From: a phage
Reading direction: 5' to 3' (one strand)
NCBI GenBank assembly: GCA_020619395.1
Contig: GCA_020619395.1_4860.1
DNA: 64,000 nucleotides
Shown: in pieces, positions 44,141-59,880 of the stretch
How the letters are laid out: each line of letters starts with the position of its first letter
How positions within the stretch are numbered: position 1 is the first letter of the stretch
Notes under the pieces: generated by a model
What the model was told of the DNA's origin: nothing
What the model saw: the letters and a program-made list of their open reading frames with translations, nothing else
Databases searched by the model: none
Program-made: the position numbers and the translations under genes

Positions 44141-44162
44141 CTGAGATAACATCTATCTGAAA
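44141..44162 (-). promoter_or_regulatory. Conserved upstream motif (GAGATAACATCTATCTGAAA class)
   Basis: Plus-strand CTGAGATAACATCTATCTGAAA 60-80 nt upstream of the ATG at 44080; same core at 51581, 59856, 40040, 58148. Confidence 0.4.
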
Positions 44163-44202
44163 TAAAATAAAGCGTACCAGCCACCCCGAAGGATAGCTGG
44201 TA
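44163..44202 (-). terminator. Rho-independent terminator
   Basis: Minus-strand CCAGCTATCC-TTCG-GGGTGGCTGG (two G-U pairs) followed by TACGCTTTATTTTATTT. Confidence 0.6.
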
Positions 44203-44207
44203 TACAC

Positions 44208-45020
44208 TTAGTTAGTTTCGAGTGGATCGTCTGGAATAGTAAACGTTATATCAAGTGAAGCTGTTGTGTGGTTGGGGATTGCCAAGTCGTGATAGATATC
44301 ATGCCCTGCACCATGTTCTTTATAGAGGAGATACAACCCGATTGCACGCATCGCTTCCCCGGTATAAAACCCAAAGGCTTGACCGTTATCCGTAGTAGGG
44401 TTTGCCCACGGAGACCAGGCACCGTTAATGGCTTTTCCTGGAATGTCTGTGACGGTGAAGTTGTCACCCATCTCTTTCATCCCCATATCCATAATTCGGT
44501 CTAACCCATCCACCGTACAACCGGCCATTGCTGCGTAAGCACTGCCTGCTATCCAGAGCGCACACATATGTGCTGTGAAATCATTCTCTACCCATACCGG
44601 TTTATTTGGTGCCGTAGGGAATTCATTCGGGGTGTGGTTGTCAAAGCGGTCTAAGAACCCTACGAGCCACTTAGCCCAATTTTCAACGTACACTACTAGC
44701 TCAGGTGGAACCTCTTTACCACGCACCACCAACTCGTACCAACAACGCGCAGCGGCGTTATACGCGCGCGGCTGATAACCTGCCCACGGATGTCCATCGC
44801 CCCAATGGAACGTTGTCCACGTATCTGCCGGACCGTAAGGGTAGTTATCCCAACGGTTCCAAATATACGCCGCACAACCTGGACCTAACTCACCTATCTG
44901 CGTTTGGTAGTTGGTTTGTGAATCGTGCATAAACCGAATCTGATTTAAGAGCCAGTCTTTGTAGCGATCATCGGTGTGTATGGTGTACATAAACGGATAC
45001 TGATAGCCGGGATACGGCAT
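44208..45020 (-). CDS. Hypothetical protein (270 aa), Trp/His-rich
   Basis: Long ORF in operon orientation; no assignable motif. Confidence 0.55.
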   Translation of the reverse strand: MPYPGYQYPFMYTIHTDDRYKDWLLNQIRFMHDSQTNYQTQIGELGPGCAAYIWNRWDNYPYGPADTWTTFHWGDGHPWAGYQPRAYNAAARCWYELVVRGKEVPPELVVYVENWAKWLVGFLDRFDNHTPNEFPTAPNKPVWVENDFTAHMCALWIAGSAYAAMAGCTVDGLDRIMDMGMKEMGDNFTVTDIPGKAINGAWSPWANPTTDNGQAFGFYTGEAMRAIGLYLLYKEHGAGHDIYHDLAIPNHTTASLDITFTIPDDPLETN

Positions 45021-45034
45021 CCCGTGCCATGCAC

Positions 45035-45313
45035 CTAGCTGATACGTTCCTTCCGAATAAATGTTCGAGAACGGTATCGTACCTGGACAATACGCGAGCG
45101 AGTCAAGACGGTAATCTTCTTACCGTTAGGTTTACGTGCTTTCGCAATGTACGCTTGCGAGGTACGGGCACTTTCAACACCTAAGTCGATTGGCCCTACT
45201 CCGCTTATCACAATCTCGTCAGGCGATAATGACAAGCCGTTATCGTGATTAATCAACGCCACGACAAGCGCTTTCGACGAGAGTGTTAGGTCGGGCTGAT
45301 AGCGGTCTGCCAT
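45035..45313 (-). CDS. Hypothetical protein (92 aa)
   Basis: ATG 45313 with GGAGG 6 nt upstream, immediately after a terminator; tracked 45349 start lies inside the hairpin. Confidence 0.45.
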   Translation of the reverse strand: MADRYQPDLTLSSKALVVALINHDNGLSLSPDEIVISGVGPIDLGVESARTSQAYIAKARKPNGKKITVLTRSRIVQVRYRSRTFIRKERIS

Positions 45314-45326
45314 TAACGCCTCCAGA

Positions 45327-45370
45327 AACAAAAAAAAATAAGCTACCACACATATGATCGTGTGGTAGCC
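45327..45370 (-). terminator. Rho-independent terminator
   Basis: Minus-strand GCTACCACAC..GTGTGGTAGC 10-bp stem followed by TTATTTTTTTTTG. Confidence 0.75.
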
Positions 45371-45383
45371 TACTCGTACGGTG

Positions 45384-45779
45384 TTAGTGCAGTGTAGCGC
45401 TGTGCACTACAGTTAACCCGCGACGTCCGATTTCATCCGCGATGGATTGCAACAGCTTATCGTAACCCACCTTTACAAATTCAGGTAAGCCGCGGTCAAC
45501 CATCTCCATCTCGGTGATTTCTTCACGGAAAACTTGACAACAGCCTTCTAAATAACGTTTAGCTTCTGTCACGTCATCGACATACCGCGCATAACTCAGG
45601 GCGATCGCGTAACCTTCTGCAATAAACGCATACTTCATGAAGACTTCAGGGTCGAGTTCTTCAACTGCCACGTCTAGACGTGAAGCGGTCTGACGTACAG
45701 AGTTACGTAATGATTCAGAAAACAGTGTAGTCGTAACCATATCCTGATTAGGAACGGTTTTAGGCATAATCAATTTCAC
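45384..45779 (-). CDS. Hypothetical protein (131 aa)
   Basis: GTG start with AAGGAG about 9 nt upstream. Confidence 0.55.
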   Translation of the reverse strand: MKLIMPKTVPNQDMVTTTLFSESLRNSVRQTASRLDVAVEELDPEVFMKYAFIAEGYAIALSYARYVDDVTEAKRYLEGCCQVFREEITEMEMVDRGLPEFVKVGYDKLLQSIADEIGRRGLTVVHSATLH

Positions 45780-45790
45780 GAGGACTCTCC

Positions 45791-46174
45791 TTACGATAAC
45801 TCGCCCATGTAAATTACTTCATAACCGAACCACTCACCGATTTCAATAAGGTAAGAAACTAGCAAGTGGCGATGACAGAATTTCCCCGGTGGGCAATAGC
45901 ACATTAGTACGACCTCGCCCTGGCGGAGAATCTCTATCAACTTATCAGTGTCTTCATCAAACAACCGACTAAGTTTCTGCAGGTAGCGTTTGGTATACGC
46001 AGCTTCTGCGTCGGGGCCTTTGTCAGACTTCTTGTAGTCCATCAGAAAGTCCCAGTCAGGTGCCAAATATTTCAGCCCCGACTTAACCGTTATATCCAGC
46101 TTTGGCAAATTCCGTTTTTCAGCTATCCGCCACTTCGCCAGTTGGAGCGTCCACAGCTTTACTTGCTTTGGCAT
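45791..46174 (-). CDS. Hypothetical protein with CYCPPGKFCHRH motif (127 aa)
   Basis: Start set to ATG 46174 (MPKQVKLW); Cys/His cluster near C-terminus; overlaps 3' end of upstream gene by 56 nt. Confidence 0.45.
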   Translation of the reverse strand: MPKQVKLWTLQLAKWRIAEKRNLPKLDITVKSGLKYLAPDWDFLMDYKKSDKGPDAEAAYTKRYLQKLSRLFDEDTDKLIEILRQGEVVLMCYCPPGKFCHRHLLVSYLIEIGEWFGYEVIYMGELS

Positions 46175-47126
46175 TTTTCGCTCTCTCTTTTTCTTTCTCC
46201 TGAAGCGCTTTAAAATGCGGTGCATATTCGCACCACTCTTCTGCTGTAAATGACGTGATAAACAGTCTTTCGGTATCTTCAGTTACCGTAAAGGTTGTGT
46301 GATTTCTTTTCGGGTCCTTAAAGTTAGCAAAAGTCGGTACGTCCAAACCCATAGCAGAAATAGCACCACCAAGAGCAGAGCACCATACCCGTCTGTAAGC
46401 ATCGTTGATTTTAATCTCCCATCCCACAGACGGTGTAATACCAAGACTACGATAATTCTGCGACTTTGCCGACGGATGGGCATAAACGATGAGCATGTTA
46501 TTCTCACGGTCTATCGCGAATTCGTAGTTGTTGTAGTTACTGACCTGCACCAATCTACGAATGTCTTCCGGCAACTCCTGCCACATTTCCAGTTTCTCTT
46601 TATCCCACGCAGGTGTTAGAAGCGGTGGAACGCGGCCGGCATGATCTTGGAAATACATCAGTTCGCTATAAAGGTTCTTTAAGCGAGCGTACTCGTCTAA
46701 TGTCCAATCTCCCAGCTCTAGACTATTCTCCAACGCATCTAGCTTATTCCAGCCAACAACTGCATAGGCGTGGTGCTGTTTGCGTGTAATGTCGCACATC
46801 AGTTTAGCGAGACCGTTAACAACATTGCCTTGCTGAACCAGAGGCGACCAGCCGTTAGCGTAGCCGGCGCTAACGACAGGCGGAAAGTTCTCTTCCCCGA
46901 GCACCGCCCATGTAACACGATCGGTTTGTGCGTGGTATCTGTCCATTAACCGTTCAACAATGGCCACACTACAAAGAATTTCCATGAAGTTCGCGTTACC
47001 TCCATTCCACATGGAGAAATATGCAGGACGGACATGTCGCGCTTCATTGGCCGGTGCTTTGCACAACAGCTGATACATTATCCAGGTGGAATCCAACCCT
47101 GCTGAAAACGAAACGAGCTTCGTCAT
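46119..47126 (-). CDS. PP-loop superfamily ATP pyrophosphatase-like enzyme (335 aa)
   Basis: N-terminal SFSAGLDST resembles the SGGxDS PP-loop (QueC / PAPS-reductase-like families); GAGG RBS. Confidence 0.55.
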   Translation of the reverse strand: MTKLVSFSAGLDSTWIMYQLLCKAPANEARHVRPAYFSMWNGGNANFMEILCSVAIVERLMDRYHAQTDRVTWAVLGEENFPPVVSAGYANGWSPLVQQGNVVNGLAKLMCDITRKQHHAYAVVGWNKLDALENSLELGDWTLDEYARLKNLYSELMYFQDHAGRVPPLLTPAWDKEKLEMWQELPEDIRRLVQVSNYNNYEFAIDRENNMLIVYAHPSAKSQNYRSLGITPSVGWEIKINDAYRRVWCSALGGAISAMGLDVPTFANFKDPKRNHTTFTVTEDTERLFITSFTAEEWCEYAPHFKALQEKEKERAKNAKASKAVDAPTGEVADS

Positions 47127-47134
47127 CCTTTACC

Positions 47135-47467
47135 TCACTTTTGTTTCTGTTTTTCTTCACGCATCAACTTAGCGTTCAGGTCGACCATGTAACCCGGTTT
47201 TTCCATCACCTGCACTTCTTCCCAGTTGCTTCCCACCGTCATTTTGAGTGTTCCTTGACGTACCGCGATTTCTTTTGCAGTGTCACGGCAGACCTCTAAC
47301 GCTTCGTCCAAATCGTTAAAGGTTGTCTTCTGTGGTCCGTTAAAGGTTTTAGCGCATTCCAGGAATACACGTTCGTAAACATCCTGGTCGAGTAAGAGTG
47401 GTTTGTCCGCAGCGTGGGCAACCATAGGCGCAACGAGTGCGCCTAACAGAACTAAAACTTTCTTCAT
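47135..47467 (-). CDS. Secreted/periplasmic small protein (110 aa)
   Basis: Start set to ATG 47467: MKKVLVLLGALVAPMVAHA signal peptide with AHA-A cleavage-like site. Confidence 0.55.
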   Translation of the reverse strand: MKKVLVLLGALVAPMVAHAADKPLLLDQDVYERVFLECAKTFNGPQKTTFNDLDEALEVCRDTAKEIAVRQGTLKMTVGSNWEEVQVMEKPGYMVDLNAKLMREEKQKQK

Positions 47468-47557
47468 TGTTTCACCGTGCGTATAAGTTGATAACGTAGG
47501 GTTAAAATTAAATCCATGTAACCTAGGGTCAATAGCGCACATGCGGCGCTATTAGCA

Positions 47558-49318
47558 CTATGCTTTCTCTGTCCAAGCGTGACCACGCAGCGTTTCACCA
47601 CGTATGTCGTATTGCTTATATTTCGAAGAGTCGTAAGACGCAGGTAAGAAGATCTGATGAACAATATCCGCCAGTCGACGAGCACCAAGGTTCTCTACAG
47701 CATTGGCTTCCATTGTTTTCTCAGCGATGAACGTATAGGTGTCCATGTCGTACTGCGTTTCCACCCCTTCGGTTTTCAACAACTTAATCATGCCGTGGAA
47801 CTCACTGTTATCCAACTTACAGATAGCAATCAGTGCCTCGGTATCCAGCGAAGACATTTTCGCCCTTAACGGAAAACGTCCCTGGAGTTCTGCCATGAGT
47901 TTAGAAACAGGCGCTTGAGCAAACGACCCAGCAGCGACAAAAAGCACATTGGTTGTGTCAACGCCATGATAAATACCTCCTTCAACCATTTTCAACAAGC
48001 TACGCTGCACACCACTACGGGATACACGTGCAGAGTGTTGCGTGTCAACCTCGATAAGTTTGTCAAACTCATCCAGGAACACCACCGCAAAGTTCTCAAC
48101 GAAATCATGCCCATTACAGTTGGGTAGTTTCTTGAGGTCTTTGCGGCTGACTGTTTCTTTTTCTGGTGCAACTGTTTCAGGTATCTCGTAATGCCAGAGT
48201 CGTTCATCAGCGTATTTGGTAAATTCTGGAGAACCTTCGAACACGTCATCCCACCAACGACACCACTTCTCAGGATCTTCCAAACGAGACAACATGCGAA
48301 TAGTAAACGCTGCAGCGTCGATCGGGAACCAATTAATGCCCACCGGCTCGGCGTCCTCGTCGTCGCCGTTAAACGTGTCGAACAAATCGTAGAAATCTGA
48401 GCCATCGGCACATGAGAGCGGAAGGTTATTCGACATCAACTTTTGACCAGCATCAACGTATAAGTCAATCTGTTCGCCTAAAGCCATCAGCGACATAAAC
48501 TCACCCATATACCCAATCGTGCCCGGTATATCGCCACCCATTAACTCATCGACTTGACTTTCAAGTTCTTCACTATTTAACAGTTCAGAAATTGACGAGA
48601 CACCGAGCAGACTCCTTGCGATTTCCGACATCTTATCTATCCATTCCTGCACAGTACGACCACCGAGCGCAACAGAATAAATATCGAAGTCTTCGTAGGT
48701 TAAATTATGTTGACGGCAATAGCCAACCATAAACGCGCGAAGACAATAGATGTCTTGGTATTCTTCGTACAACTCCTTCGGATCGAGTATACCCTGACGC
48801 CGTAATAGTTCGGTGTGTTCACGTTTAGCTTGATACCGCAGCTGGCGCTCAGCGGCGCGCTCGTCTAGTTCACGTTCAACTTCCTTGCGGGATTCACGCT
48901 CCCACTCTTCTCGAGTAAGACGATTACCGTCTACTTCCGACTCGACACGACGTTTGGTACGCAGTTCGATATACCAGTCGGGCAATTCGACAGAACGCGC
49001 TAAGTCGGCTAAGTCCTTGCCGATTGATGTAACTTCCCGGCCTACGTAGCCCGATTCTGTAAACGCGGTCATGTCGAGTTCCAGTACGGGTAAACCGAAT
49101 TTAGTTTTCAGTACCCGCATCAACGCCGTTTTACCCGTGCCTGTTGGACCTTCTATTAAAAGGTTCTGTTTGTGGACCGACATACGGTCCACTACGTTGA
49201 GTTTGTTGGCACGATATCGATTACGTAGCGCAATCGCCAGCATTTTCTTTGCCTGCGTTTGTCCGTATACGTAACGGTCGAATAGCGCCACTATCTCAAT
49301 CGGCGTAAGGTTTTCCAT
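47558..49318 (-). CDS. HslU/ClpX-family AAA+ ATPase (586 aa)
   Basis: N-terminus TPIEIVALFDRYVYGQTQAKKMLAIALRNRYR..LIEGPTGTGKTALMR..FTESGYVGREV and C-terminus VFLDEFDK..GVQRSLLKMVEG..ENLGARRL parallel E. coli HslU block by block (from memory). Confidence 0.75.
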   Translation of the reverse strand: MENLTPIEIVALFDRYVYGQTQAKKMLAIALRNRYRANKLNVVDRMSVHKQNLLIEGPTGTGKTALMRVLKTKFGLPVLELDMTAFTESGYVGREVTSIGKDLADLARSVELPDWYIELRTKRRVESEVDGNRLTREEWERESRKEVERELDERAAERQLRYQAKREHTELLRRQGILDPKELYEEYQDIYCLRAFMVGYCRQHNLTYEDFDIYSVALGGRTVQEWIDKMSEIARSLLGVSSISELLNSEELESQVDELMGGDIPGTIGYMGEFMSLMALGEQIDLYVDAGQKLMSNNLPLSCADGSDFYDLFDTFNGDDEDAEPVGINWFPIDAAAFTIRMLSRLEDPEKWCRWWDDVFEGSPEFTKYADERLWHYEIPETVAPEKETVSRKDLKKLPNCNGHDFVENFAVVFLDEFDKLIEVDTQHSARVSRSGVQRSLLKMVEGGIYHGVDTTNVLFVAAGSFAQAPVSKLMAELQGRFPLRAKMSSLDTEALIAICKLDNSEFHGMIKLLKTEGVETQYDMDTYTFIAEKTMEANAVENLGARRLADIVHQIFLPASYDSSKYKQYDIRGETLRGHAWTEKA

Positions 49319-49527
49319 TATTTTTCCTCTTTCAATATCTCAGCAACCGCTTTGCGACACGCGTTCACCGCGTCAGGATAAGTGCTATTGTTCGGGTCTA
49401 CTCGATCAATACACATTCTGAACGTACTGGTTGCGGTCTCGCGACGTTCTGCAGTGCGGGTACTGGTACTGACGGCGATATAAATACAGAACAACACAGC
49501 AGCTGCAATCGGCCAACGTAAGTTCAT
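49318..49527 (-). CDS. Small membrane-anchored protein (69 aa)
   Basis: Hydrophobic N-terminus WPIAAAVLFCIYIAVS; start and stop overlap neighbours by TAATG-type coupling. Confidence 0.45.
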   Translation of the reverse strand: MNLRWPIAAAVLFCIYIAVSTSTRTAERRETATSTFRMCIDRVDPNNSTYPDAVNACRKAVAEILKEEK

Positions 49528-50225
49528 CAGTAATCCCCCGTTGCCCCTATCGCAGTCGCTACTTTACTGGCAACCTCGTCAACCGGAAGCACCACCTCGT
49601 CTTTCTTGCTCACAATCTCTGGCACTTCTTTGACATGTTCAACGGTCACGTCAAATTTCCGAGTATAACCAACAAGTAACTTTGCCATTTCTGCACGACT
49701 AACGAACTGTTGTTCTTCTGACAGATGCAACGACGTATCAAGTAGTCCGGAATGCATGAAGTTTTCAATGAGTTGGTCTTCTTCTGCTTTGAAGTCGTAC
49801 CGCTCGTTCGGTGCAGCCACAAATGCATAACCGAAATACTTCCCCTCTTCCTGTTCAGGGCGTAACGATTTAACTAACTCCTCAGCGTGTTCACAGAAGT
49901 CCGCCAAAGTATAATCGTCAAGTGTGGCAACTGCGGTTTCTGTTACAATTTCACCGCTGTCGAGTTCGGTGAGGTGCATCACCCACAGGTGCCATGGGCG
50001 CGGTTGGTCGAACAGCCCACCGACTAACATGTCTGTGGCGATAGCACGAATACGTGGACTTGCTGTAAAGTGAAAACCGCGGCCCGCGTACGGGCCGAGA
50101 CGGCGAATGGAGCTGCCAATAAAGGTGATGCGGTTCAGCGCGTTTTCAGCGATGGTGTGCGCTGTACGCTCTGTAGCAGCTTTTGGGTTATACTTTTTGT
50201 TACGGGGTTTCTTTTGCTTAGCCAT
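49527..50225 (-). CDS. Hypothetical protein (232 aa)
   Basis: ORF directly upstream of the HslU-like gene; no HslV-like motifs. Confidence 0.55.
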   Translation of the reverse strand: MAKQKKPRNKKYNPKAATERTAHTIAENALNRITFIGSSIRRLGPYAGRGFHFTASPRIRAIATDMLVGGLFDQPRPWHLWVMHLTELDSGEIVTETAVATLDDYTLADFCEHAEELVKSLRPEQEEGKYFGYAFVAAPNERYDFKAEEDQLIENFMHSGLLDTSLHLSEEQQFVSRAEMAKLLVGYTRKFDVTVEHVKEVPEIVSKKDEVVLPVDEVASKVATAIGATGDY

Positions 50226-50695
50226 TACTTAAAAACCTTTTTGCAAACTGTGTGGAATACTTTACGAATTTCACGAAGGGATTGTTCGGTGTGCAGATAA
50301 CGATACGTTATCTTCCACGCGTTATACGTGTTTTTCAGGGTGATTTCGCTGAGGTCATAAACGAAATCATCATCAGGGTACATGAGTCTCGCCATGGATA
50401 AATCCCACAATGGTGGAATATCCGCTTTCATTAACTCAGCGACAAGCTCATGTGCTTTGTGTTCAAAGCCGATGCCAAGAACGAACACCACATGAAATTC
50501 CCCCGGTGTGTTCTTTTTAGAATATGGTCCGTGTCCATGACACGACCAGATTGTCGTGGCACCAGGATAACTACAAATGACCTCACACGCATCCCGTACG
50601 CCTTTCTCAACCCAACCGTTTACGAGCGCCTTAGACGTTCGTAGTTTAAACCGACCCAGAACATCCAGGTCCACGCCACCGTATAAAACTGGCAT
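50225..50695 (-). CDS. Hypothetical protein (156 aa)
   Basis: AAGGAG RBS; no assignable domain. Confidence 0.55.
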   Translation of the reverse strand: MPVLYGGVDLDVLGRFKLRTSKALVNGWVEKGVRDACEVICSYPGATTIWSCHGHGPYSKKNTPGEFHVVFVLGIGFEHKAHELVAELMKADIPPLWDLSMARLMYPDDDFVYDLSEITLKNTYNAWKITYRYLHTEQSLREIRKVFHTVCKKVFK

Positions 50696-50723
50696 CTTTA
50701 ATTCTCCTTAAGGGTGTCTTCAT

Positions 50724-51176
50724 TTAATGGTTATGTTCTGTAAAAATTGCGAGTGCGAGCCAGTGCTCCATCACTCTTTCCATCACATCCGGGTCAGGTC
50801 GATAGTTGAGTCTAAACGTCCAGCTTGGATAACAGAGGTTCGCGTTGCCTTCTTGACGCAGCCAAGTAAAGTTTAACTGAAAACGTTTCCCGTATTCGTG
50901 CGGCTGCCATCCTTCTAATAAATGATTAATGTCTTTAAGACCCGCCTCGGTTGCCACAAATGTTAAGCTGTGGTGTCTACGTGTACGAAGCTTGTCTCCG
51001 TCTTTGCGAACTTCTCCCGTGAATGCCCAAACGGTTGCGATATTCGGCCATTCGCTAAATGCCCTAATGATTGCACGCGTTTTAACATCGACTGGTTTTT
51101 CAGCATCCAGCGCCCGGATTGTGCGCTGCTTGTACGCGGCCAATTCCGCATCATTGACGACTGAACATTGAAACAT
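50724..51176 (-). CDS. Hypothetical protein (150 aa)
   Basis: ORF with G-rich RBS. Confidence 0.5.
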   Translation of the reverse strand: MFQCSVVNDAELAAYKQRTIRALDAEKPVDVKTRAIIRAFSEWPNIATVWAFTGEVRKDGDKLRTRRHHSLTFVATEAGLKDINHLLEGWQPHEYGKRFQLNFTWLRQEGNANLCYPSWTFRLNYRPDPDVMERVMEHWLALAIFTEHNH

Positions 51177-51196
51177 GGTATACCCCCCAAAGGGTT

Positions 51197-51237
51197 AAAA
51201 ATAAAAAGAACCCTACCTAACCGAAGTTAGGTAGGGG
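51197..51237 (-). terminator. Rho-independent terminator
   Basis: Minus-strand CCCTACCTAAC-TTCG-GTTAGGTAGGG followed by TTCTTTTTATTTTT. Confidence 0.75.
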
Positions 51238-51242
51238 ACTAC

Positions 51243-51548
51243 TTAAGCGACAGCGCGTTTGCGTTTATCGACGACTTTCTTGGTTGCTTTCGCTGCCTTC
51301 TTACTGGCAGGGATAGTATCAACCGGGGTGTCGGCTACCAAGGCACGCTCTACACCGTCTGCACGTACGACGCGCAGATTCTTCGCCTGTGGTAAGCCTT
51401 TGAAAGTGATGGTCAAACCCGCGCGGAGACCTTGATACAGAAACCCTTGCAGGTTCAGTTTCTTGGCGGTTGCAGTGTTCTCACAACCTTTCTCCACGTA
51501 CAGCAGAGTCGTACCTGCGCGTTTAACAATTGTGTATTGTTTAGCCAT
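51243..51548 (-). CDS. Small basic protein (101 aa), possible nucleic-acid-binding
   Basis: Lys-rich C-terminus KKAAKATKKVVDKRKRAVA; preceded by conserved upstream motif. Confidence 0.55.
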   Translation of the reverse strand: MAKQYTIVKRAGTTLLYVEKGCENTATAKKLNLQGFLYQGLRAGLTITFKGLPQAKNLRVVRADGVERALVADTPVDTIPASKKAAKATKKVVDKRKRAVA

Positions 51549-51580
51549 CTACTTTTTCCTTTCTTTACAGTTAGGTTCAG

Positions 51581-51602
51581 TAAAATAACATCTATCTGAA
51601 AA
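51581..51602 (-). promoter_or_regulatory. Conserved upstream motif
   Basis: Plus-strand TAAAATAACATCTATCTGAAAA about 35-55 nt upstream of the ATG at 51548. Confidence 0.4.
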
Positions 51603-51610
51603 GTCGTGCG

Positions 51611-51943
51611 TTAGACCATCATCTCTAAGCGCACATACTCTTTACGGCTAGGATGTACCTGCGCCATAATCCGATGATGTACACGGTCGATGAGCAGCGT
51701 TTCGTTTACGCGCGGAATAAACCGAAATACGTTTAACGGTAACGTGAACTCAACACCCGTCACAATATTAGACAGTGTCATTAGTTCTTCGCCGATACCT
51801 TTAACTTCTGCAACCACGGAACGATCGTGTACCTCACCACCTAACGGGGGTGTGAACGCCCGAATAAAGCGGACGTGCAGTTCCTGGTGCGTCAGTGTGG
51901 GCTCAATGGGGTTTAGGTTCGACATGAAGCTGTCCTGGGGCAT
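51611..51943 (-). CDS. Hypothetical protein (about 110 aa); start uncertain
   Basis: Tracked 183-aa ORF overlaps 51903-52220 in another frame; only the C-terminal part looks protein-like. Start at MPQDSF (51943) or MSNL (51925). Confidence 0.35.
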   Translation of the reverse strand: MPQDSFMSNLNPIEPTLTHQELHVRFIRAFTPPLGGEVHDRSVVAEVKGIGEELMTLSNIVTGVEFTLPLNVFRFIPRVNETLLIDRVHHRIMAQVHPSRKEYVRLEMMV

Positions 51944-52220: not shown

Positions 52221-52271
52221 TCTCTTAATTCCTCTTTACGTGGGTTGTTTCACATAAGTTAGTGGACTGAT

Positions 52272-52310: not shown

Positions 52311-52316
52311 CAAACC

Positions 52317-52799
52317 TTACAGTTGGTTTTCTTCGCGGTCGTCTGTCAGGACGGCTGCGCAGATAAAGCGCGCGAGTTTCAATTTCGCAGCCGCCGTCTC
52401 CTCTGCAGTCGGATTCGGGTCAACCGGCGCAGCCAAATCGACATCTGCCAGCTCTTCCGCGTATTTCTCAGCAGCTTCATCGAAGCCTGCACGGATACCT
52501 GCCAGAAGGTCTTGTACTTCATCGCTTGGCACAGGACCATCGATAAGAATCTTCTGAGCGTCAGACGGCTCTACATCGGCAAAGTTCATTTCGTTCAACA
52601 TGCCAATGCGTTCTGCGTTAGAGGTGATGAGTTGTGCCAACAGTTTTTCAAAACGGTTGATGTGTTCATCGTCCAACGGTTGACCGGTCAGTAGCTCGTA
52701 GTAGCGGGCCATAAGTGTGTTCGCGTCGGCCCCTTCCTCATGACGCACGCCTAAATCAAAATCGTGCTGAGGGAGCTGACCTAATTCGATCATATCCAT
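52317..52799 (-). CDS. Hypothetical highly acidic protein (160 aa)
   Basis: ATG 52799 with GAGG 7 nt upstream (tracked TTG 52811). Asp/Glu-rich. Confidence 0.55.
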   Translation of the reverse strand: MDMIELGQLPQHDFDLGVRHEEGADANTLMARYYELLTGQPLDDEHINRFEKLLAQLITSNAERIGMLNEMNFADVEPSDAQKILIDGPVPSDEVQDLLAGIRAGFDEAAEKYAEELADVDLAAPVDPNPTAEETAAAKLKLARFICAAVLTDDREENQL

Positions 52800-52839
52800 A
52801 GTTAACCTCAACGGTGTTTAAGGGTCATACAATGGCGAA

Positions 52840-53118
52840 TTACGCCGTTACCGGAACAGGGGTGATTAACAGCTCCCCTTCCACCTCACGTAACTGATAA
52901 CCGTACATAACGTTGTAGGATTTAATGCCGTCGCGTTGTTTGGCTTTCGCGACGAGCTTTTCCAACACGCGGCTATGTGCGCGAGTCATTTCTTCTTTCG
53001 AATAAACGACTTGGAGTACGTGCTGTTCGTCAATAACGGCACGGAACTGCATTACGTCGCCGTCCTCAACGTTGTAAACGACTTCTTTAGACTTCGACAC
53101 TGTACGATTAATTTGCAT
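52840..53118 (-). CDS. Hypothetical protein (92 aa)
   Basis: ATG 53118 with GGAG 8 nt upstream (tracked 53130 lacks SD). Confidence 0.5.
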   Translation of the reverse strand: MQINRTVSKSKEVVYNVEDGDVMQFRAVIDEQHVLQVVYSKEEMTRAHSRVLEKLVAKAKQRDGIKSYNVMYGYQLREVEGELLITPVPVTA

Positions 53119-53920
53119 TATTTTCTCCATTAGTAGTTTTCAGGGCACGTCCGTACACATAACTTTCGGGTAGCCAACCATTTTCTAATAACCACATTGC
53201 GGCTGGTCCCCCAGTATATTGGTGGTAAGTGTAAACTAATTCATCCCCCACCGGTAATTCAGACTGGATACAGTGCATCAACAGTCCGAACTCCTCTCGA
53301 GTTAGAGTAACCACCCCTTCTGCGGTAAACCATCCACCAATAACCCAGCGTCGTCCACGATGTGAGAGCACTGTCAGTTTGTAACTATCGCTGCTCCGCC
53401 ATGACATCATCCTCCCGCCCATGACAAGCGTTGAGTAGATAGAGCTTGTACCGTAAAGCATCCTAACCCAATCCAAGAACGCTTTCTTACTATCGAACAA
53501 CGAACTGACATCCCCACAGAAATCCTCATCGTGGCTAGGCACCGATGTATTAATTTTGCGGTAGTTTATCGTTTCGCAACAAAAGCCCATGCGCGAATAT
53601 TCGTCCCCTTCCGAACGAGTAAAATGCATCGCGTAGTTACACCCCGCTGAGCGGAGTAAAGCATCCGCAAGCGAGGTTAACTGGGCGTCTAAAGCACGAA
53701 CCATATTGATAACTTCTAACATGTATCCGTGGTCCAGACAGAGCACGATCGCATCAGGCGCAACTGTGTCCCGACTGAATACTTCAAAGATTCGGTAGTA
53801 AAGACGACGTTCATCTTGTAACGTGGAAGGATCGATATCATTTAACAACGATAACGCTTTACGGTCTTCCAACCACGTTCGGTCCAGAATCCTCTCCGTG
53901 CGTTCGATAACTCTCAGCAT
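53108..53920 (-). CDS. Hypothetical protein (270 aa)
   Basis: AAGGAGAG RBS. Confidence 0.6.
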   Translation of the reverse strand: MLRVIERTERILDRTWLEDRKALSLLNDIDPSTLQDERRLYYRIFEVFSRDTVAPDAIVLCLDHGYMLEVINMVRALDAQLTSLADALLRSAGCNYAMHFTRSEGDEYSRMGFCCETINYRKINTSVPSHDEDFCGDVSSLFDSKKAFLDWVRMLYGTSSIYSTLVMGGRMMSWRSSDSYKLTVLSHRGRRWVIGGWFTAEGVVTLTREEFGLLMHCIQSELPVGDELVYTYHQYTGGPAAMWLLENGWLPESYVYGRALKTTNGENNAN

Positions 53921-53929
53921 ATTCTCTCC

Positions 53930-54733
53930 TTACGCAAGGGTGTAGTGATGCGTGATTACACGATACTCTAACCCTTCGATAGAAGGAAACTCGTGCTCTA
54001 TCGCAACGCCCATGTTGACCTTCTTACCTTTCTGTCCCGCCAAATGCAAAATGGCGTGGTAGTGTTTTAGAAACTCTACCGAGTAGGCAATCGGGTCAAA
54101 ACTTTGGCAGCAGAATTGCTCAGTAATGATGCTCTTCGGGAACTCCTTATAGAGCATTAATGAAAACGGTTTCTGGCCGTGTAACCCTACAAACGCGGAA
54201 ACAAAACCATTTGCTAATTCACCCAACATCTCACGCGTTCCTGCGTCTTTTAGCGTGGGCCGCATTAGATAGCAAACATCTTGGGTTTGTTCTAATGACA
54301 ATGTCTCCAACGGGACAACTGATGGGTCTGACGTAAAGCCGTATTTCGGACTAACAGTAATCTCCACACGCTTCGTTACAGCTTCGAACCCCAGACGTTG
54401 GTACAATGCCGCATGTTCGGTGTCATGCGGAAAACAGGTAATATCAAGCATCTGCACTTCCAGGAGTCGCGTTAAACGCTTCCACTCGTGGAACAGGGGC
54501 TCGGAAAGCACGTGCAACTCGTAGATGTAGTAAACAATACCTGAACGACATCCACGAAAATACATTTGCGCACGACCGCTATTGCTCAACACTAACCAAT
54601 GATCATCTTCTTGGTCTGCGACGGGTCGCAAATCTTGAATCCGTTCACGGAGTTGCCCCAAGGTGGTCAATCGACCACTAAACTCTACGGTCAGGTCATT
54701 ATTGTCCATACCGTATAGATTAAATAGTTGCAT
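53930..54733 (-). CDS. Hypothetical protein (267 aa)
   Basis: ORF tightly packed in operon. Confidence 0.6.
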   Translation of the reverse strand: MQLFNLYGMDNNDLTVEFSGRLTTLGQLRERIQDLRPVADQEDDHWLVLSNSGRAQMYFRGCRSGIVYYIYELHVLSEPLFHEWKRLTRLLEVQMLDITCFPHDTEHAALYQRLGFEAVTKRVEITVSPKYGFTSDPSVVPLETLSLEQTQDVCYLMRPTLKDAGTREMLGELANGFVSAFVGLHGQKPFSLMLYKEFPKSIITEQFCCQSFDPIAYSVEFLKHYHAILHLAGQKGKKVNMGVAIEHEFPSIEGLEYRVITHHYTLA

Positions 54734-54743
54734 GTAAGGTACC

Positions 54744-55562
54744 TTATAAGGTGCCGATTAGCTCTGTCACTGATTTACGTTTATTCGCGTCGGCGGACAT
54801 ATATCGACCTACCTGAACTTCACGCCAGGTAAAACCGTAGTAGATGTCACGTGTGAGTAACGTATCTGCGTTTGACAGAACGACCTTATTGCCATCGGCA
54901 GCTTGTTGTTTTAAAAGTTTCGCTAACTCGCGGTGGTCAGCTTGTGAAAATTCCTTGCTGTGATACTGCGCATGTTTAGCCGTATCCGAAAGTGGGATGT
55001 ATGGCGGGTCAGCGTATATCACTGCGTTAGATGGGCACTTATTTAGGATGTCGCGGAAGTCGGCGCAGAGCAGCTCGACGTTGGTTTCCGAACAACGTTT
55101 TGCCCACGCCAGAATTTCCTCTTCAGGGAAATAGACACCGTTCGGATGTTGACCATAGGGCACGTTAAACCCACCCGACCGATTGTATCTGCACAAGCCG
55201 TTGTAACCATGACGTGTAAGATACAGGAACATCGCAGCGCGCTGGAGATTAGGTTTCCCCGTGGTTGTCTCGCTGTTAAATTCCTCACGCCGTTTCATGT
55301 ACAGACCGCGGTCCAGCCCATTTGCAAAGAGCGCCTTTGCTTCCAGTATCAACGCCTCCGGACGATCACGCGCCATGGTCAATAACTCGATTAAGTCCGG
55401 GTTCGTGTCGCCGAGAATATAGTTCGGGTATTTAGTGTTTAAAAACACTGACCCTGCACCCACAAACGGTTCAACGAAATACTCAGCATCCGGAAGCACC
55501 TGTAGAAGCTCGGGCAGTACACGACTCTTACCACCCATCCATTTTAAAATTGGTCTTATCAC
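54744..55562 (-). CDS. dam: DNA adenine methyltransferase (Dam family, GATC-type N6-adenine MTase)
   Basis: LKWMGGK, VEPFVGAGSVFLNT, FLYLTRHGYNGLCRYNRSGGFNVPYG, DPPYIPLS: near-collinear with E. coli Dam motifs (from memory). GTG start. Confidence 0.85.
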   Translation of the reverse strand: MIRPILKWMGGKSRVLPELLQVLPDAEYFVEPFVGAGSVFLNTKYPNYILGDTNPDLIELLTMARDRPEALILEAKALFANGLDRGLYMKRREEFNSETTTGKPNLQRAAMFLYLTRHGYNGLCRYNRSGGFNVPYGQHPNGVYFPEEEILAWAKRCSETNVELLCADFRDILNKCPSNAVIYADPPYIPLSDTAKHAQYHSKEFSQADHRELAKLLKQQAADGNKVVLSNADTLLTRDIYYGFTWREVQVGRYMSADANKRKSVTELIGTL

Positions 55563-55565
55563 CCG

Positions 55566-56567
55566 TTAGCATCCTCTCATGCCAGATTGAAACATGTCAT
55601 TAATCGTTGGTCTGGGGTTGGTCTCCACCGGGAGGCTAGGTTCTTCTTTCAGCACTCGGTCGGCGCGGTTCCCTTTTACGCGTTTCCAGCTAATAAGCTC
55701 AGGGTCGCGTTTCAACGTTAGTGTACGCAGTACCTGTTTGCAACGTAGGATGTTGCCATACAGGTGATTTGCTGGATTATTATCAGCAGCTGTTTCAATA
55801 TAGACTTGGTCGGAATGACGTTGTGCGAAATCGAATAGCGCGCCCATTAACCGGCGACCAATGTCACGTTTACGATGCGTAGGTGCAACCGTCAAGCCAG
55901 AAAGTTCAACGACGCCTGGTGTAACCAAGCGCATCTGGGCAATACCGACGATATCGCGGCCGTCTCGCCAAATTGCAGTCTCCACATTAGCGTGCTGAAT
56001 TCTTGCTATTACTGTTTCTGCTAACGGACCAATGTGCGTATAGTGGCCGCGCACATCGTACTCTAGCTCTTCGCAAATTGCACCACTGACCAGATTCAGG
56101 ATAACGTCTTTGTCGTCCTTGGAAAGTTCTGCGTATGCGTCACCAGAAATAATCTTGATTTCCGATGCAGTTATTACTTTATCAAACAGTTTAGAATGAC
56201 ATGCCCAGACGATATCTGAAAGAACAAACCCTTTTTCGACCAGTTTTTGTTCAACATCGTCAGTAGGTGCTGGACATGACATATATTCGAATCCGGTATG
56301 GTCTAGCACAAGGGATAAACCAACTTTATCGAATGCCCCAGGTACAAACTCCTCAAAATAGTGACAGGTTAGTGTGGGGTCACCGTGTCGATAAGTGGCC
56401 ACTAAATAACCCTCCCAGGTTTCTTTATTCTGTACCACGTAAACAGAATAAGTCTCGTCCTTTAGAAACTCTTTTAGGCGGCGTGCTCGTACAGTATCGG
56501 TACCGACGTTATTTTGGAACTCGGCAGAGCGAATGCTGCTGCGGAACAATTTAGCCACAGTTTTCAT
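55566..56567 (-). CDS. GNAT-family acetyltransferase-like protein (333 aa)
   Basis: ATG 56567 with GAGGG 8 nt upstream (tracked GTG 56597 lacks SD). C-terminal VELSGLTVAPTHRKRDIGRRLMGALFDFA resembles GNAT acetyl-CoA motif A. Confidence 0.6.
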   Translation of the reverse strand: MKTVAKLFRSSIRSAEFQNNVGTDTVRARRLKEFLKDETYSVYVVQNKETWEGYLVATYRHGDPTLTCHYFEEFVPGAFDKVGLSLVLDHTGFEYMSCPAPTDDVEQKLVEKGFVLSDIVWACHSKLFDKVITASEIKIISGDAYAELSKDDKDVILNLVSGAICEELEYDVRGHYTHIGPLAETVIARIQHANVETAIWRDGRDIVGIAQMRLVTPGVVELSGLTVAPTHRKRDIGRRLMGALFDFAQRHSDQVYIETAADNNPANHLYGNILRCKQVLRTLTLKRDPELISWKRVKGNRADRVLKEEPSLPVETNPRPTINDMFQSGMRGC

Positions 56568-56613
56568 TGTAATGCCCTCAAAAGGTAATGCTGTCACAAC
56601 ATGAGGATAACGC

Positions 56614-56654
56614 GTAAAAAGACAAAAAATTAAGGGGTCCGAAGACCCCTTAAT
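56614..56654 (-). terminator. Rho-independent terminator
   Basis: Minus-strand TTAAGGGGTC-TTCG-GACCCCTTAA followed by TTTTTTGTCTTTTT. Confidence 0.75.
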
Positions 56655-56656
56655 GA

Positions 56657-57313
56657 TTACAGTTCAGGTTTGGAGACAAGCGCCGTCCAAGTTTCAGAAT
56701 GTTTGACACTGACGTGCGCCAAGCGATTCACCATGAACGCAAATTTGTCCATATGCTTCTGCACTTCGTTATCAGTCAGATTACCAGCGATAACTTTACC
56801 GTCTTTGGTCAGCACGATATAACCGTGGTTGTTGTCTACCGTAGTAAACGCCACGTCAATCGTAACTGGGTACAGTTTCACCAGCGTCGGCAGAATATGA
56901 CCAACACGATCCGCCATACCCGCAAGCTGACCACAAAGGTCGGCTTTATCCTGCATAAACAAACGCAACATCGCTACTGCAAACACCGGATAGATGTTTT
57001 CGATTTGCGTGTCGTAACGAGACAGACCGATAACTTCATCACCACGTGTTAGCACCATGTTGTTCAGATGCGCGCCTTTATAGATGGTAAAGCGTACGTC
57101 GCTACCAAGGTTAACCGCAACGATTTCCTGACCAAGGTCAATCGGATATTCGCGCTCGATGTGAATTGTTTTCAGACGTTCACTGATTGGTACAATTACA
57201 TCCGGTTTAGGAATGGTAGGTGAACGCGGAGATTCGGTAGTACGCGTTTTTGTGGCTTTAATCGCGTTGCTTGCCATTGAATCTTTTGCTACAGTTTTAG
57301 GGGCCTTCGCCAT
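56657..57313 (-). CDS. Hypothetical protein (218 aa)
   Basis: ATG 57313 with AAGGAG 7 nt upstream (tracked 57391 overlaps upstream gene). Confidence 0.55.
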   Translation of the reverse strand: MAKAPKTVAKDSMASNAIKATKTRTTESPRSPTIPKPDVIVPISERLKTIHIEREYPIDLGQEIVAVNLGSDVRFTIYKGAHLNNMVLTRGDEVIGLSRYDTQIENIYPVFAVAMLRLFMQDKADLCGQLAGMADRVGHILPTLVKLYPVTIDVAFTTVDNNHGYIVLTKDGKVIAGNLTDNEVQKHMDKFAFMVNRLAHVSVKHSETWTALVSKPEL

Positions 57314-57335
57314 GATATACTCCTTAAGGGTTATA

Positions 57336-57725
57336 TTAGTTATCCCAGAAAGCTGCTTCTGGAAAGTCGTGTTCAAATGCCCGACGGTCATTCTCTACAC
57401 GGTTTAAATGTGTCGGTAAAGACACGCAGTTATTACAGATACAAAGTTCTTTATCCCCTTGACTGGGGTCAAAGTCGTACCATTTCCACTCAACAGTATC
57501 CCGTTTCGGGAAGGTACCTTTGCAATCGTCGCAGACCACTTCTTCAGCTGCAATTTCAGCCTGCAGCTTTTCCCAGCAGTTCTCGCACATGTAATACGTT
57601 TCGCGGCCCCATGGGTCGCACTCTGCCGTATAACGTGGAGCTATAGACCCCACTTTAAGATGTTTACATCGATCATCCTCTTCCGTCATTACACGACGGG
57701 TGATACCATTTACAAACCAATTCAT
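57336..57725 (-). CDS. Cys-rich zinc-ribbon-like protein (129 aa)
   Basis: Paired Cys motifs CENCWEK, CDDCKG, CICNNC. Confidence 0.55.
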   Translation of the reverse strand: MNWFVNGITRRVMTEEDDRCKHLKVGSIAPRYTAECDPWGRETYYMCENCWEKLQAEIAAEEVVCDDCKGTFPKRDTVEWKWYDFDPSQGDKELCICNNCVSLPTHLNRVENDRRAFEHDFPEAAFWDN

Positions 57726-57736
57726 ACGTTTGCTCC

Positions 57737-58102
57737 CTACATCACTGCAGAAGGTTTACGTGCCATGACTTTAAGTCCTGTTTCTCGTACCCGGATAGGA
57801 CAGTTATTCATGTAGTCGATGCAGGATTCAATTTTGAAGCTATGGCGGCATTTGCCGTTGATGGAACGGTAAACGATTTCGTAATTCAGGCGCAGTGTAT
57901 CGGCAACACGCATCAGAGTTTCGATAGTCACGGCTTTCTCGCGTTCATTTTTAATCGCAGAGATTTGTGACGGTGAGCAGCCTACCAACAATGCAATGTC
58001 TTTCTGCGTAACATCCTTCGCAGTGACACGAGTAATAATGTAAGAGAGACGAACCAGAAATGCTTTCTTTGCCAACACAACAGTTTGATGTTTAAAACGC
58101 AT
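57737..58102 (-). CDS. HTH (XRE-like) transcriptional regulator
   Basis: KDIALLVGCSPSQISAIKNEREKAVTIETLMRVADTL fits helix-turn-helix_3 pattern; AAGGAG RBS; first gene after the conserved leader cassette. Confidence 0.65.
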   Translation of the reverse strand: MRFKHQTVVLAKKAFLVRLSYIITRVTAKDVTQKDIALLVGCSPSQISAIKNEREKAVTIETLMRVADTLRLNYEIVYRSINGKCRHSFKIESCIDYMNNCPIRVRETGLKVMARKPSAVM

Positions 58103-58133
58103 TAGAATACTCCTTTAGATTAATAGTCGATTA

Positions 58134-58177
58134 GAGAGTTTAACGACAACTCTCACTAAGGTAATATATATCTGAAA
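58134..58177 (-). promoter_or_regulatory. Conserved upstream motif plus leader hairpin (copy 2 of duplicated leader cassette)
   Basis: Hairpin GAGAGTT-TAACGAC-AACTCTC and AACTCTCACTAAGGTAATATATATCTGAAA; 58103-58180 near-identical to 39995-40072. Confidence 0.45.
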
Positions 58178-58217
58178 TTTAGTGGACTGGAAGCAAAAAG
58201 CATAGGACTGTTCTGAT

Positions 58218-58259
58218 CTGTAAAAAAGACAATGCCCTCTTACCCGAAGGTAAGAGGGG
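58218..58259 (-). terminator. Rho-independent terminator
   Basis: Minus-strand CCCTCTTACC-TTCG-GGTAAGAGGG followed by CATTGTCTTTTTTACAG. Confidence 0.7.
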
Positions 58260-58264
58260 TACAA

Positions 58265-58888
58265 CTAACCTGCCAGAATACGTTCAACGATACGGGCGGC
58301 CTGTAACGCCATATCGTCGTCTGCTGTAATTCGCATCAGTGGAAACTTATCACCACCGTCTGTAGTGATGTGGAACGCAAAACGGTAATGGTCGCGTAAG
58401 GCGTCCCAATCGGTCTGTGAGCGCAGATACTTCGCTGTCAGTACCTCATCATCCCAGTGCTTACCTTGTGCTTCTACGCGCTTCTTAAAGCGTTCTGTGG
58501 CGGTTTCGTAAGATACATCGGTTGCCACGTAAAGCTTTGGTGCGTTAATGTGGTCTAATACTCGCGAACGGAAAACTTCCCCTTTACCATCTACGCCCTG
58601 GTAGACAATGGTCGATTGACAAAAACGGTCAAAAATAACGACATCGTGCTCTGGTACAACGAAATCCATTGTATATTGGAAATCCAGACACATCGCTTTG
58701 GCAATACGTTCATTAGAGGCGTGCTGGATAACCAGAGAGCGTGCACTAATACCGGCTTCAGTGGTATTCGTCGGGTGATTGACGATGGTGACATTAACGC
58801 CAGCGGAGCGCAACATCGCTTGAATCATTTTCGCGAGTGTTGATTTGCCAGAAAAGTCCGGACCATCCAGCGCCACTGAGTTTAACAT
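58265..58888 (-). CDS. tmk: Thymidylate kinase-like dNMP kinase (207 aa)
   Basis: P-loop ALDGPDFSGKST and DRFCQSTIVYQG (DRY..AYQG-like) typical of dTMP kinases. ATG 58888 with GGGGAAG upstream (tracked GTG 58930 lacks SD). Confidence 0.65.
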   Translation of the reverse strand: MLNSVALDGPDFSGKSTLAKMIQAMLRSAGVNVTIVNHPTNTTEAGISARSLVIQHASNERIAKAMCLDFQYTMDFVVPEHDVVIFDRFCQSTIVYQGVDGKGEVFRSRVLDHINAPKLYVATDVSYETATERFKKRVEAQGKHWDDEVLTAKYLRSQTDWDALRDHYRFAFHITTDGGDKFPLMRITADDDMALQAARIVERILAG

Positions 58889-58948
58889 TTTATTCTTCCC
58901 CAAAAGTTTAATTAATTGTAGTGGTGTCACAATATAGCGAGCATACGT

Positions 58949-58986
58949 AAAGAAAAAAAATAATAGGCACTCCGAAGAGTGCCTAG
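58949..58986 (-). terminator. Rho-independent terminator
   Basis: Minus-strand TAGGCACTC-TTCG-GAGTGCCTA followed by TTATTTTTTTTCTTT. Confidence 0.75.
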
Positions 58987-58991
58987 CTTAC

Positions 58992-59756
58992 TTAGAAGTC
59001 AACTCGCGTTTTCGATTTTTCCTCAATGCCTTCTGGCCATGAATCAATCCACGCCTGCAGCACCGCAGCTACACGGGGCTCAGCTAAGAACTTCTTCAAC
59101 AACGGCCATGACTGGAGAGGATATAAAAACTTCAACGAAACTTGACCTGGGTCAAACTCATTCCGAACAGTAAACGGTAAACGGAAATCATAAGTTACCT
59201 GAACAACTGGCTCACTGAAAGGCTGGCCAAAGAAACTCAGGTTCCGAGTTACCGAAAGGACGTGCCCTGCAAACTCACCCCGAATCAGTTCGCTGCTCTT
59301 AACGGAGACAAACGAATAACCGTCGGTGTTCGGCTTACGCAGTCGTTCGGTTTTCATCACGTTAGCGAAGAAGTTATCAATCACTTCTTCGACCAATACG
59401 TAATTCAGACACTCCCCACGCAACGCCTCGAGATTGTGTTGAGACCATGCATCCCATAGCGCCGGTTTTCTGGCAATCAGCTTAAAGAACAGACGTGCAG
59501 AAACCGCCCGGAGTTCGCCGAGCATTTTCTTGGTCAGTTCAGTTTGATCCCAACTAGGGGCACAAAAGATTGTCCTTCCGCCGGAACCTACTAAGGTGGC
59601 ACCGGTCACGCTGTTAATCAGTTTGTGACTTAACATGTGCGGAATACCTTTTGGTGTCAGGTCATTTTCGTTATACGTGAATACGTAGCGATACTGACCA
59701 TCTGCGGTAGGTACGGAAAGCCATTCTTTGGTTGCTGCTTTATTGAGTTTTGACAT
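58992..59756 (-). CDS. Hypothetical protein (254 aa)
   Basis: ORF following conserved upstream motif. Confidence 0.55.
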   Translation of the reverse strand: MSKLNKAATKEWLSVPTADGQYRYVFTYNENDLTPKGIPHMLSHKLINSVTGATLVGSGGRTIFCAPSWDQTELTKKMLGELRAVSARLFFKLIARKPALWDAWSQHNLEALRGECLNYVLVEEVIDNFFANVMKTERLRKPNTDGYSFVSVKSSELIRGEFAGHVLSVTRNLSFFGQPFSEPVVQVTYDFRLPFTVRNEFDPGQVSLKFLYPLQSWPLLKKFLAEPRVAAVLQAWIDSWPEGIEEKSKTRVDF

Positions 59757-59855
59757 TTTGTTTACTCGCTTTTAAGTTTAAGTTGGTGAGTTTTAACCGA
59801 CTCACAACGGCTTCTAGCATATGCTAAGGATGAAACGTAATTTTTGCACGTCTCC

Positions 59856-59879
59856 CTAAGATAACATCTATCCAAAAAA
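59856..59879 (-). promoter_or_regulatory. Conserved upstream motif
   Basis: Plus-strand CTAAGATAACATCTATCCAAAAAA, with TGAAACGTAATTT shared with the 44101-44140 copy. Confidence 0.35.
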
Positions 59880-59880
59880 G

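Follow-up and report, generated by a model that had tools for sequence, protein, structure and literature searches.

A 37-bp motif as the probable virion polymerase-dependent early promoter of an SPN3US-like jumbo phage

Early promoters of related jumbo phages

The early promoters of phage phiKZ, described by Ceyssens et al. in 2014, reportedly depend on the virion RNA polymerase (vRNAP). The present analysis concerns a stretch of phage DNA of 64,000 nt (GenBank assembly GCA_020619395.1, contig GCA_020619395.1_4860.1; hereafter the window) and a ~37-bp motif that occurs five times on its minus strand, each time upstream of a gene. These five copies are very probably early promoters of an SPN3US-like jumbo phage, read by a virion-packaged multisubunit RNA polymerase (RNAP).

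Every jumbo phage encoding its own RNAPs contains a conserved ~10-nt AT-rich motif centred near -10 before its presumed early operons; wherever transcripts have been profiled, this motif turned out to be the early promoter, used by the vRNAP that is injected (PMC7598289). The early promoters of phiKZ have been refined by differential RNA-seq (dRNA-seq; PMC8244752) and ONT-cappable-seq (PMC10914365), and contain an extended -10 box together with a T-rich element upstream of -19 (PMC8244752), while the -10, -20 and -30 regions are conserved in phiKZ and 201phi2-1 (PMC11512511). The early motifs of 201phi2-1 and AR9 were first found by bioinformatics and then confirmed by mapping of transcription start sites (TSSs) (PMC11512511, PMC5312081). 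The vRNAP early-promoter class and its presence in every RNAP-encoding jumbo phage is already published.

The 9-kb stretch around the motif sites shares 98.3% identity with Salmonella phage 1252 and ~96% with SPN3US, two phiKZ-related members of the genus Seoulvirus with jumbo genomes of 240 kb. As the plus strand of the window corresponds to the minus strand of SPN3US, the motif-bearing minus-strand genes run in the main transcription direction of the phage. In SPN3US, gp42, gp218, gp240, gp241 and gp244 are head-packaged vRNAP subunits, and gp35 is part of the non-virion RNAP (nvRNAP) (PMC5105663); the RefSeq locus tags are numbered in reverse, the original gpN being 266 minus the tag number. 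The vRNAP genes themselves are located outside the 64-kb window.

The motif in the window and in the SPN3US genome

The SPN3US genome (NC_027402.1) was scanned and a 37-position matrix was built from its sites, in which the start of the ATA is numbered as position 0. The coding-strand consensus is 5'-yTCnAAa-N5-TTTCAGATAkATATTAyCTwnGTGAg-3' (~37 bp). In the count matrix of 23 sites, the bases A-12, A4, T5, T7, A9 and G17 are invariant, and ATATTA is invariant or nearly so; the blocks TTTCAGATA and yTCnAA are also apparent. The sites fall into two subclasses, the G-type (ATAGATATTATCT) and the T-type (ATATATATTACyTAGGTGAG). The window contains three of the former and two of the latter, all on the minus strand:

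40043..40079, minus strand, site 1: T-type TTTCAGATATATATTACTTAGGTGAG; ATA start 40063; putative +1 40046; matrix score 44.4
44136..44172, minus strand, site 2: G-type TTTCAGATAGATGTTATCTCAGTGAAC; ATA start 44156; putative +1 44139; matrix score 39.9
51575..51611, minus strand, site 3: G-type TTTCAGATAGATGTTATTTTACTGAAC; ATA start 51595; putative +1 51578; matrix score 32.1
58151..58187, minus strand, site 4: T-type TTTCAGATATATATTACCTTAGTGAG; ATA start 58171; putative +1 58154; matrix score 44.4
59851..59887, minus strand, site 5: G-type TTTTGGATAGATGTTATCTTAGGGAGA; ATA start 59871; putative +1 59854; matrix score 36.0

The five sites score 32-44 bits, with the next-best window position on either strand at 8.1 bits. 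Aligned on the minus strand over ~37 nt, they share TTTCAGATA[G/T]AT[G/A]TTA[C/T]... and conserved flanks on either side. The 16-mer TAACATCTATCTGAAA with at most three mismatches gives five matches where 0.48 would be expected, a number that was not reached in any of 100 shuffled sequences.

An earlier inspection of the letters (the original prediction) had placed the three main copies at 44141-44162, 51581-51602 and 59856-59879, where they indeed lie. The variant TAATATATATCTGAAA also exists in two copies, but the positions given for it (40040 and 58148) are 14 nt off, the true ones being 40054-40069 and 58162-58177. A degenerate copy proposed at about 38741 does not belong to the group: the string ATCTGAA is present at 38743-38749, yet it scores below 5 bits and precedes a virion-structural paralogue gene. 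All members stand upstream of minus-strand start codons, as had been stated, with leaders of 52, 59, 30, 52 and 98 nt for sites 1 to 5 counted from the invariant G.

The genome-wide scan that the original prediction had proposed yielded 23 sites of 24-47 bits in SPN3US, compared with at most 16.6 bits in ten shuffled 240-kb genomes, and all 23 lie on the strand of the next gene. Gaps between annotated genes hold 21 of the 23, and the site at 174956 extends into the 3' end of the gene before it. Five of the 23 head a plus-strand gene block right after a divergent minus-strand gene, and tandem pairs occur at two loci (15616/15709 and 72488/72686). According to the RefSeq annotation, each site is followed first by a small gene that is hypothetical or non-structural, and in no case by an annotated virion or vRNAP subunit gene. 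The site at 28971 stands 26 nt before the nvRNAP genes gp34/gp35 (ACQ60_gp232/231), while the tandem sites 15616/15709 head an operon with a homologue of the phiKZ nvRNAP subunit PHIKZ055.

Register match to the phiKZ early promoters

The first 50 kb of phiKZ contain seven plus-strand copies of TATATTAC before genes, one of which precedes PHIKZ054, a gene whose primary TSS carries the early motif (PMC8244752). The SPN3US consensus agrees with these seven sites in register at 14 positions (T-15, A-12, A-11, T-6, T-4, A-2, ATATTA at 4-9, G17 and A18), and with the SPN3US matrix, phiKZ sites such as that upstream of PHIKZ054 reach 14-28 bits. The shared features are thus a T at -15, AA at -12/-11, TTT at -6 to -4, and ATATTA(C) followed by six bases and TGA, as well as a location before small early genes. 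With G17 taken as the putative +1, ATATTAy spans -13 to -7, the T-rich block -23 to -21 and TCnAA -32 to -28, which places the blocks at -10, -20 and -30 in agreement with the published descriptions for phiKZ and 201phi2-1. The SPN3US-type sites differ from those of phiKZ in that the -20 block (CAGATA) is far more strongly conserved and two subclasses exist. The SPN3US-type genome is also richer in G+C (48.5% vs 37% for the initial 50 kb of phiKZ), so that the sites stand out sharply.

The early promoters of 201phi2-1 and AR9 are likewise phage-specific AT-rich motifs with -10, -20 and -30 regions upstream of hypothetical early genes (PMC11512511, PMC5312081). Their consensus sequences differ from the present one, as compared by published description, and AR9 further differs in having uracil-containing DNA and no phage nucleus.

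In phiKZ, a sequence closely resembling the early motif (TTTAAGATCTATATCAT) was also seen at 63035-63100 (~2760-2830 of the retrieved locus L110), upstream of the nvRNAP beta cluster PHIKZ070.1/071. It has ATATCA for ATATTA and no G at the expected +1, and scores below 10 bits with the SPN3US matrix.

Conservation in related phages

In Erwinia phage Asesino, which belongs to another genus (Erskinevirus), the query region is ~73% identical, and a scan of the syntenic 40 kb with the matrix gave five sites, one positional orthologue for each of the five window sites. In the retrieved Asesino locus (L008), site 1 corresponds by position to 25936, site 2 to 20475 (directly after a tail protein gene), site 3 to 10778 and site 4 to 5617, which likewise stands before a helix-turn-helix (HTH) gene. 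SPN3US, Asesino, ChrisDB (Machinavirus) and pEa_SNUABM_38 (Derbicusvirus) all keep the site before the nvRNAP beta gene, with the same spacing to the start codon; across these four genera, the identity of the protein falls to 54%. The exact T-type 22-mer occurs 38 times in IMG/VR, on jumbo-phage contigs of 107-246 kb plus one 7-kb fragment, and all retrieved loci together contain 110 distinct sites. Full-text literature searches for the motif strings returned nothing relevant.

Assignment of the sites and alternative explanations

The original prediction had left open a phage-specific promoter class or an operator, and strand specificity, asymmetry and the register match to phiKZ early promoters support the former. 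An operator for a phage DNA-binding protein, e.g. the HTH protein encoded after site 4, which would switch early transcription with or without promoter function in the same element, is an unlikely explanation. It would account for the inverted repeat AGATA-N5-TATCT in the G-type sites, the weak matrix matches (10-15 bits) on the reverse strand of some sites, and the HTH_3 protein encoded directly downstream of one site in SPN3US-type phages and Asesino. However, these reverse-strand scores are within the range of shuffled genomes, the T-type and phiKZ sites (ATATTAC) lack the repeat, and the conserved positions are asymmetric and extend well past it, A-12 and G17 being invariant. The single orientation of all 23 sites to the genes is also not required of a symmetric operator. 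An additional operator role is not needed to explain the motif, and may overlap the promoter in the G-type sites.

Promoters of the host sigma-70 RNAP of the extended -10 or AT-rich type, as used by polymerase-less phages, are a very unlikely reading. Typical sigma-70 promoters carry TTGACA-like and TATAAT-like hexamers with a spacing of 16-18 bp. The sites share with sigma-70 promoters an AT-rich hexamer ~7-13 nt upstream of the start, strand specificity and an AT-rich context, and the G-type core TATTAT matches TATAAT at five of six positions. They lack a -35 element and a TG at -15/-14, and have instead -20/-30 blocks unlike TTGACA and an invariant TG at -1/+1. In line with the original prediction, which had seen no sigma-70 likeness, a pattern scan found no minus-strand match at any of the five site positions (0/5), and the overall pattern counts were at or below shuffle expectation (20 vs 26.6 and 0 vs 4.2). 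The motif is moreover common to phiKZ, whose early transcription is independent of the host RNAP. Equally improbable are middle or late promoters read by the nvRNAP instead of the virion enzyme, even though the assignment of the enzyme comes from analogy and some nvRNAP genes of 201phi2-1 are expressed from middle promoters (PMC11512511). The middle and late promoters of phiKZ are different, having TATG at the start site and, near -22 to -24, an element that is weak and either AT-rich or TACT (PMC7598289, PMC8244752), whereas the present motif matches the early consensus in register. It also heads nvRNAP genes, which must be made before the nvRNAP exists, and is absent upstream of virion-structural clusters, including window 1-38658.

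Site 5 (TTAGGGAGA) resembles the start region of the T7 promoter, but a T7-like reading was rejected, as the other sites lack this likeness and the SPN3US RefSeq annotation contains no single-subunit RNAP.

Several points weigh against vRNAP-dependent early promoters. Searches of the literature found no transcript 5' ends, timing data or in vitro transcription for SPN3US-type phages, and the enzyme, the +1 and the 'early' label of the SPN3US sites all come by analogy. The evidence that early transcription does not depend on the host RNAP comes from phiKZ (PMC7598289) rather than from SPN3US itself. In 201phi2-1, the nvRNAP genes are not all adjacent to an early promoter (PMC11512511), so that the argument from nvRNAP genes is supportive rather than compulsory. 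The SPN3US site at 25228 (38 bits), the only clearly intragenic one of the 23, falls within coding sequence, with 261 nt separating it from the next gene, and the 5-bp inverted repeat of the G-type core could be a protein operator overlapping the promoter. From the motif itself, its statistics, its association with strand and genes, its conservation and its register match to phiKZ, we nevertheless infer virion polymerase-dependent early promoters, with the enzyme, the exact +1 and the early timing assigned by analogy.

In the proposed mechanism, the five-subunit vRNAP (gp42, gp218, gp240, gp241 and gp244) would be ejected from the virion with the DNA and recognise the ~37-bp elements through yTCnAA (~-32 to -28), TTTCAGATA (~-23 to -15), ATATTAy (-13 to -7) and TG (-1/+1). 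Initiation would occur leftwards at or within 1-2 nt of the invariant G (40046, 44139, 51578, 58154 and 59854), and each start would open a short unit of small non-structural genes closed by a strong UUCG-loop terminator.

Transcription units and terminators of the window

Together with strong terminators, the sites split the minus strand of the window into short units:

39994-39548 (148-aa gene) and following genes to terminator 38808-38793, minus strand, site 1 unit
44080-40168 (~10 small genes) to terminator 40127-40104, minus strand, site 2 unit
51548-51243 (one 101-aa gene) ending at terminator 51236-51211, minus strand, site 3 unit
58102-57737 (HTH DNA-binding protein gene) and two more genes to terminator 56654-56629, minus strand, site 4 unit
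59756-58992 (254-aa gene, after a 98-nt leader) to terminator 58985-58964, minus strand, site 5 unit

The product of the HTH gene matches HTH_3 and phrog_7126. According to the original prediction, the copies usually stand just after a terminator. This holds for four of the five, which have a strong stem-loop ~20-85 nt before them, but not for the remaining one. Three of the four stem-loops are terminator-like by scan, and the fourth was read by eye:

40104..40127, minus strand, terminator with UUCG loop that ends the site 2 unit, ~25 nt upstream of site 1; 10 pairs (6 G-C) and a T-run
44175..44202, minus strand, stem-loop terminator directly upstream of site 2; 12 pairs
58235..58258, minus strand, stem-loop terminator that follows the thymidylate kinase gene and lies upstream of site 4
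59892..59911, minus strand, stem-loop CCCACTCC-CGAA-GGAGTGGG (plus-strand reading) directly upstream of site 5; read by eye

The last of these was missed by the terminator scan because its T-run starts more than 2 nt beyond the stem. The minus-strand terminators (38808-38793, 40127-40104, 44202-44175, 45375-45336, 51236-51211, 52311-52286, 56654-56629, 58258-58235 and 58985-58964) are very regular, mostly consisting of a G+C-rich stem of 9-12 bp, a UUCG loop and a T-run.

The matrix scan found no early site in the tail/virion genes 51176-44208 or in the structural region left of 38658. Several units that lack the early motif, such as 56597-52317 and 51176-45384, presumably use middle or late promoters; a quick look for a motif shared after the terminators not followed by the early motif (possible middle or late promoters) gave nothing convincing.

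Leader features

A hairpin distinguishes the T-type sites (ATATATATTAC): in 36 of the 48 distinct ones its first base is G17 itself, which independently favours G17 as the 5' end. The mean folding z-score of the first 32 nt is -2.2 for T-type and -0.5 for G-type leaders. Across 29 distinct homologous sites, the stem shows compensation, with A-U, C-G, G-C or U-A as its fourth pair and G-C, U-A or A-U as its fifth. The box T[CT]GAC[CT]AT, standing just before the ribosome-binding site, is present in 12 of 48 T-type leaders, mostly at +24 to +27, against an expectation of 0.005 per leader. G-type promoters mostly have neither hairpin nor box. In the window, both elements are found at each T-type site:

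40026..40046, minus strand, site 1 hairpin GAGAGTTAACCATTAACTCTC, starting at the putative +1; predicted -9.6 kcal/mol, z = -5.1
40021-40014, minus strand, site 1 leader box TCGACCAT, after the hairpin
58134..58154, minus strand, site 4 hairpin GAGAGTTGTCGTTAAACTCTC, starting at the putative +1; predicted -8.8 kcal/mol, z = -3.2
58130-58123, minus strand, site 4 leader box TCGACTAT, after the hairpin

Hairpin and box were also seen at Asesino L008 5617 and 25936 and at many IMG/VR loci. A tentative interpretation is that SPN3US/Erwinia-type phages have two early-promoter classes, of which the T-type is hard-wired to a leader module of stem-loop and UCGACyAU box. No description of such a T-type leader module was found in the literature searched. 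If real, it could mark a subset of immediate-early mRNAs for stability, translation or handling at the vesicle stage, the last of which would precede the synthesis of any phage protein.

In coliphage N4, the virion enzyme consists of one subunit and recognises a hairpin located upstream of +1. The SPN3US-type sites resemble the N4 early promoters in being read, as proposed here, by a virion-injected polymerase and in the presence of a hairpin at part of the sites; unlike in N4, the hairpin begins at the putative +1 and is confined to the T-type subclass. No hairpin was evident by eye in the seven phiKZ sites. An RNA 5' stem-loop is a simpler explanation of the T-type hairpin than an N4-like DNA hairpin. 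5'-terminal stem-loops of the ompA type stabilise Escherichia coli mRNAs, and T-type transcripts are likewise predicted to start with a stem-loop without unpaired 5' nucleotides, but differ from ompA-type leaders in that the hairpin is coupled to the conserved downstream UCGACyAU box at +24 to +27, for which we know of no counterpart.

A second box (TGAAACGTAA) had been proposed to accompany two of the copies, and two perfect copies do occur in the leaders of sites 2 and 5:

44117..44130, minus strand, second box, copy 1: plus strand TGAAACGTAAATTT, coding strand AAATTTACGTTTCA; site 2 leader, ~+10 to +23
59831..59844, minus strand, second box, copy 2: coding strand AAAATTACGTTTCA; site 5 leader

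In the window alone, the box is not above chance, as its 10-mer with one mismatch was found six times against 7.2 expected. Its core GAAAWTTACG (~+9 to +18) is found with unchanged spacing behind the orthologous Asesino site (L008 20475, box at ~20490-20510) and in an IMG/VR locus (L019), and it is this conservation in related phages, not the window statistics, that argues for the reality of the box. As the stems around it differ, what is conserved seems to be its sequence and not a structure. An Rfam search of window 38000-60500 gave two sub-threshold, chance-level matches, neither at a motif site.

Other observations in the window and in SPN3US

The region 44208-49318 of the window, between two early units, is a region of divergence from SPN3US: coverage of the 9-kb query is 81% in SPN3US and 100% in phages 1252 and SPLA3. 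Its annotations switch between 'tail protein' and 'glycosyl hydrolase' among relatives, as would fit a host-range cassette that can be swapped. A long minus-strand array of open reading frames (ORFs) of similar size (~265-500 aa) at 22394-38658 corresponds to the SPN3US 'virion structural protein' run ACQ60_gp113-gp128. These ORFs are probably paralogues, and the matrix scan found no early motif anywhere in this array.

In SPN3US, the 617-aa gene after 15709 neighbours the PHIKZ055 homologue and thus occupies the place of the phiKZ nuclear-shell gene. This gene was considered as a chimallin, but no match came from a tblastn search with PHIKZ054, from pairwise BLASTP or from a sequence search of the PDB, leaving its position. 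After the site at 72488, a good ribosome-binding site and an ATG (TAAGGAGACAGTAATGG) are present without an annotated gene, and a small ORF may thus be missing from the annotation. At 165706-165760, the leader of the T-type site 165689 contains a terminator-like stem-loop (GGCTACCTTCGGGTAGCC, with a T-run) between the +1 hairpin and the gene, which could be an attenuator or a source of short RNA. Such a short RNA would be comparable to the phiKZ short 5'-untranslated region (5'-UTR) RNAs (PMC10914365).

Significance

The motif leaves the current understanding of jumbo-phage transcription unchanged. It provides a precise map of predicted early starts, five in the window and 23 in the genome, for SPN3US-type phages, which are the main genetic model for giant Salmonella phages. 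To our knowledge, no promoter-recognition subunit of the vRNAP is known, and the consensus is useful for structural work on this enzyme and for the engineering of early-expression cassettes. Aligned with phiKZ, the 37-bp consensus shows the bases kept by virion RNAPs between Pseudomonas and enterobacterial phages, namely AA at ~-29/-28, ATATTA at -13 to -8 and TG at -1/+1.

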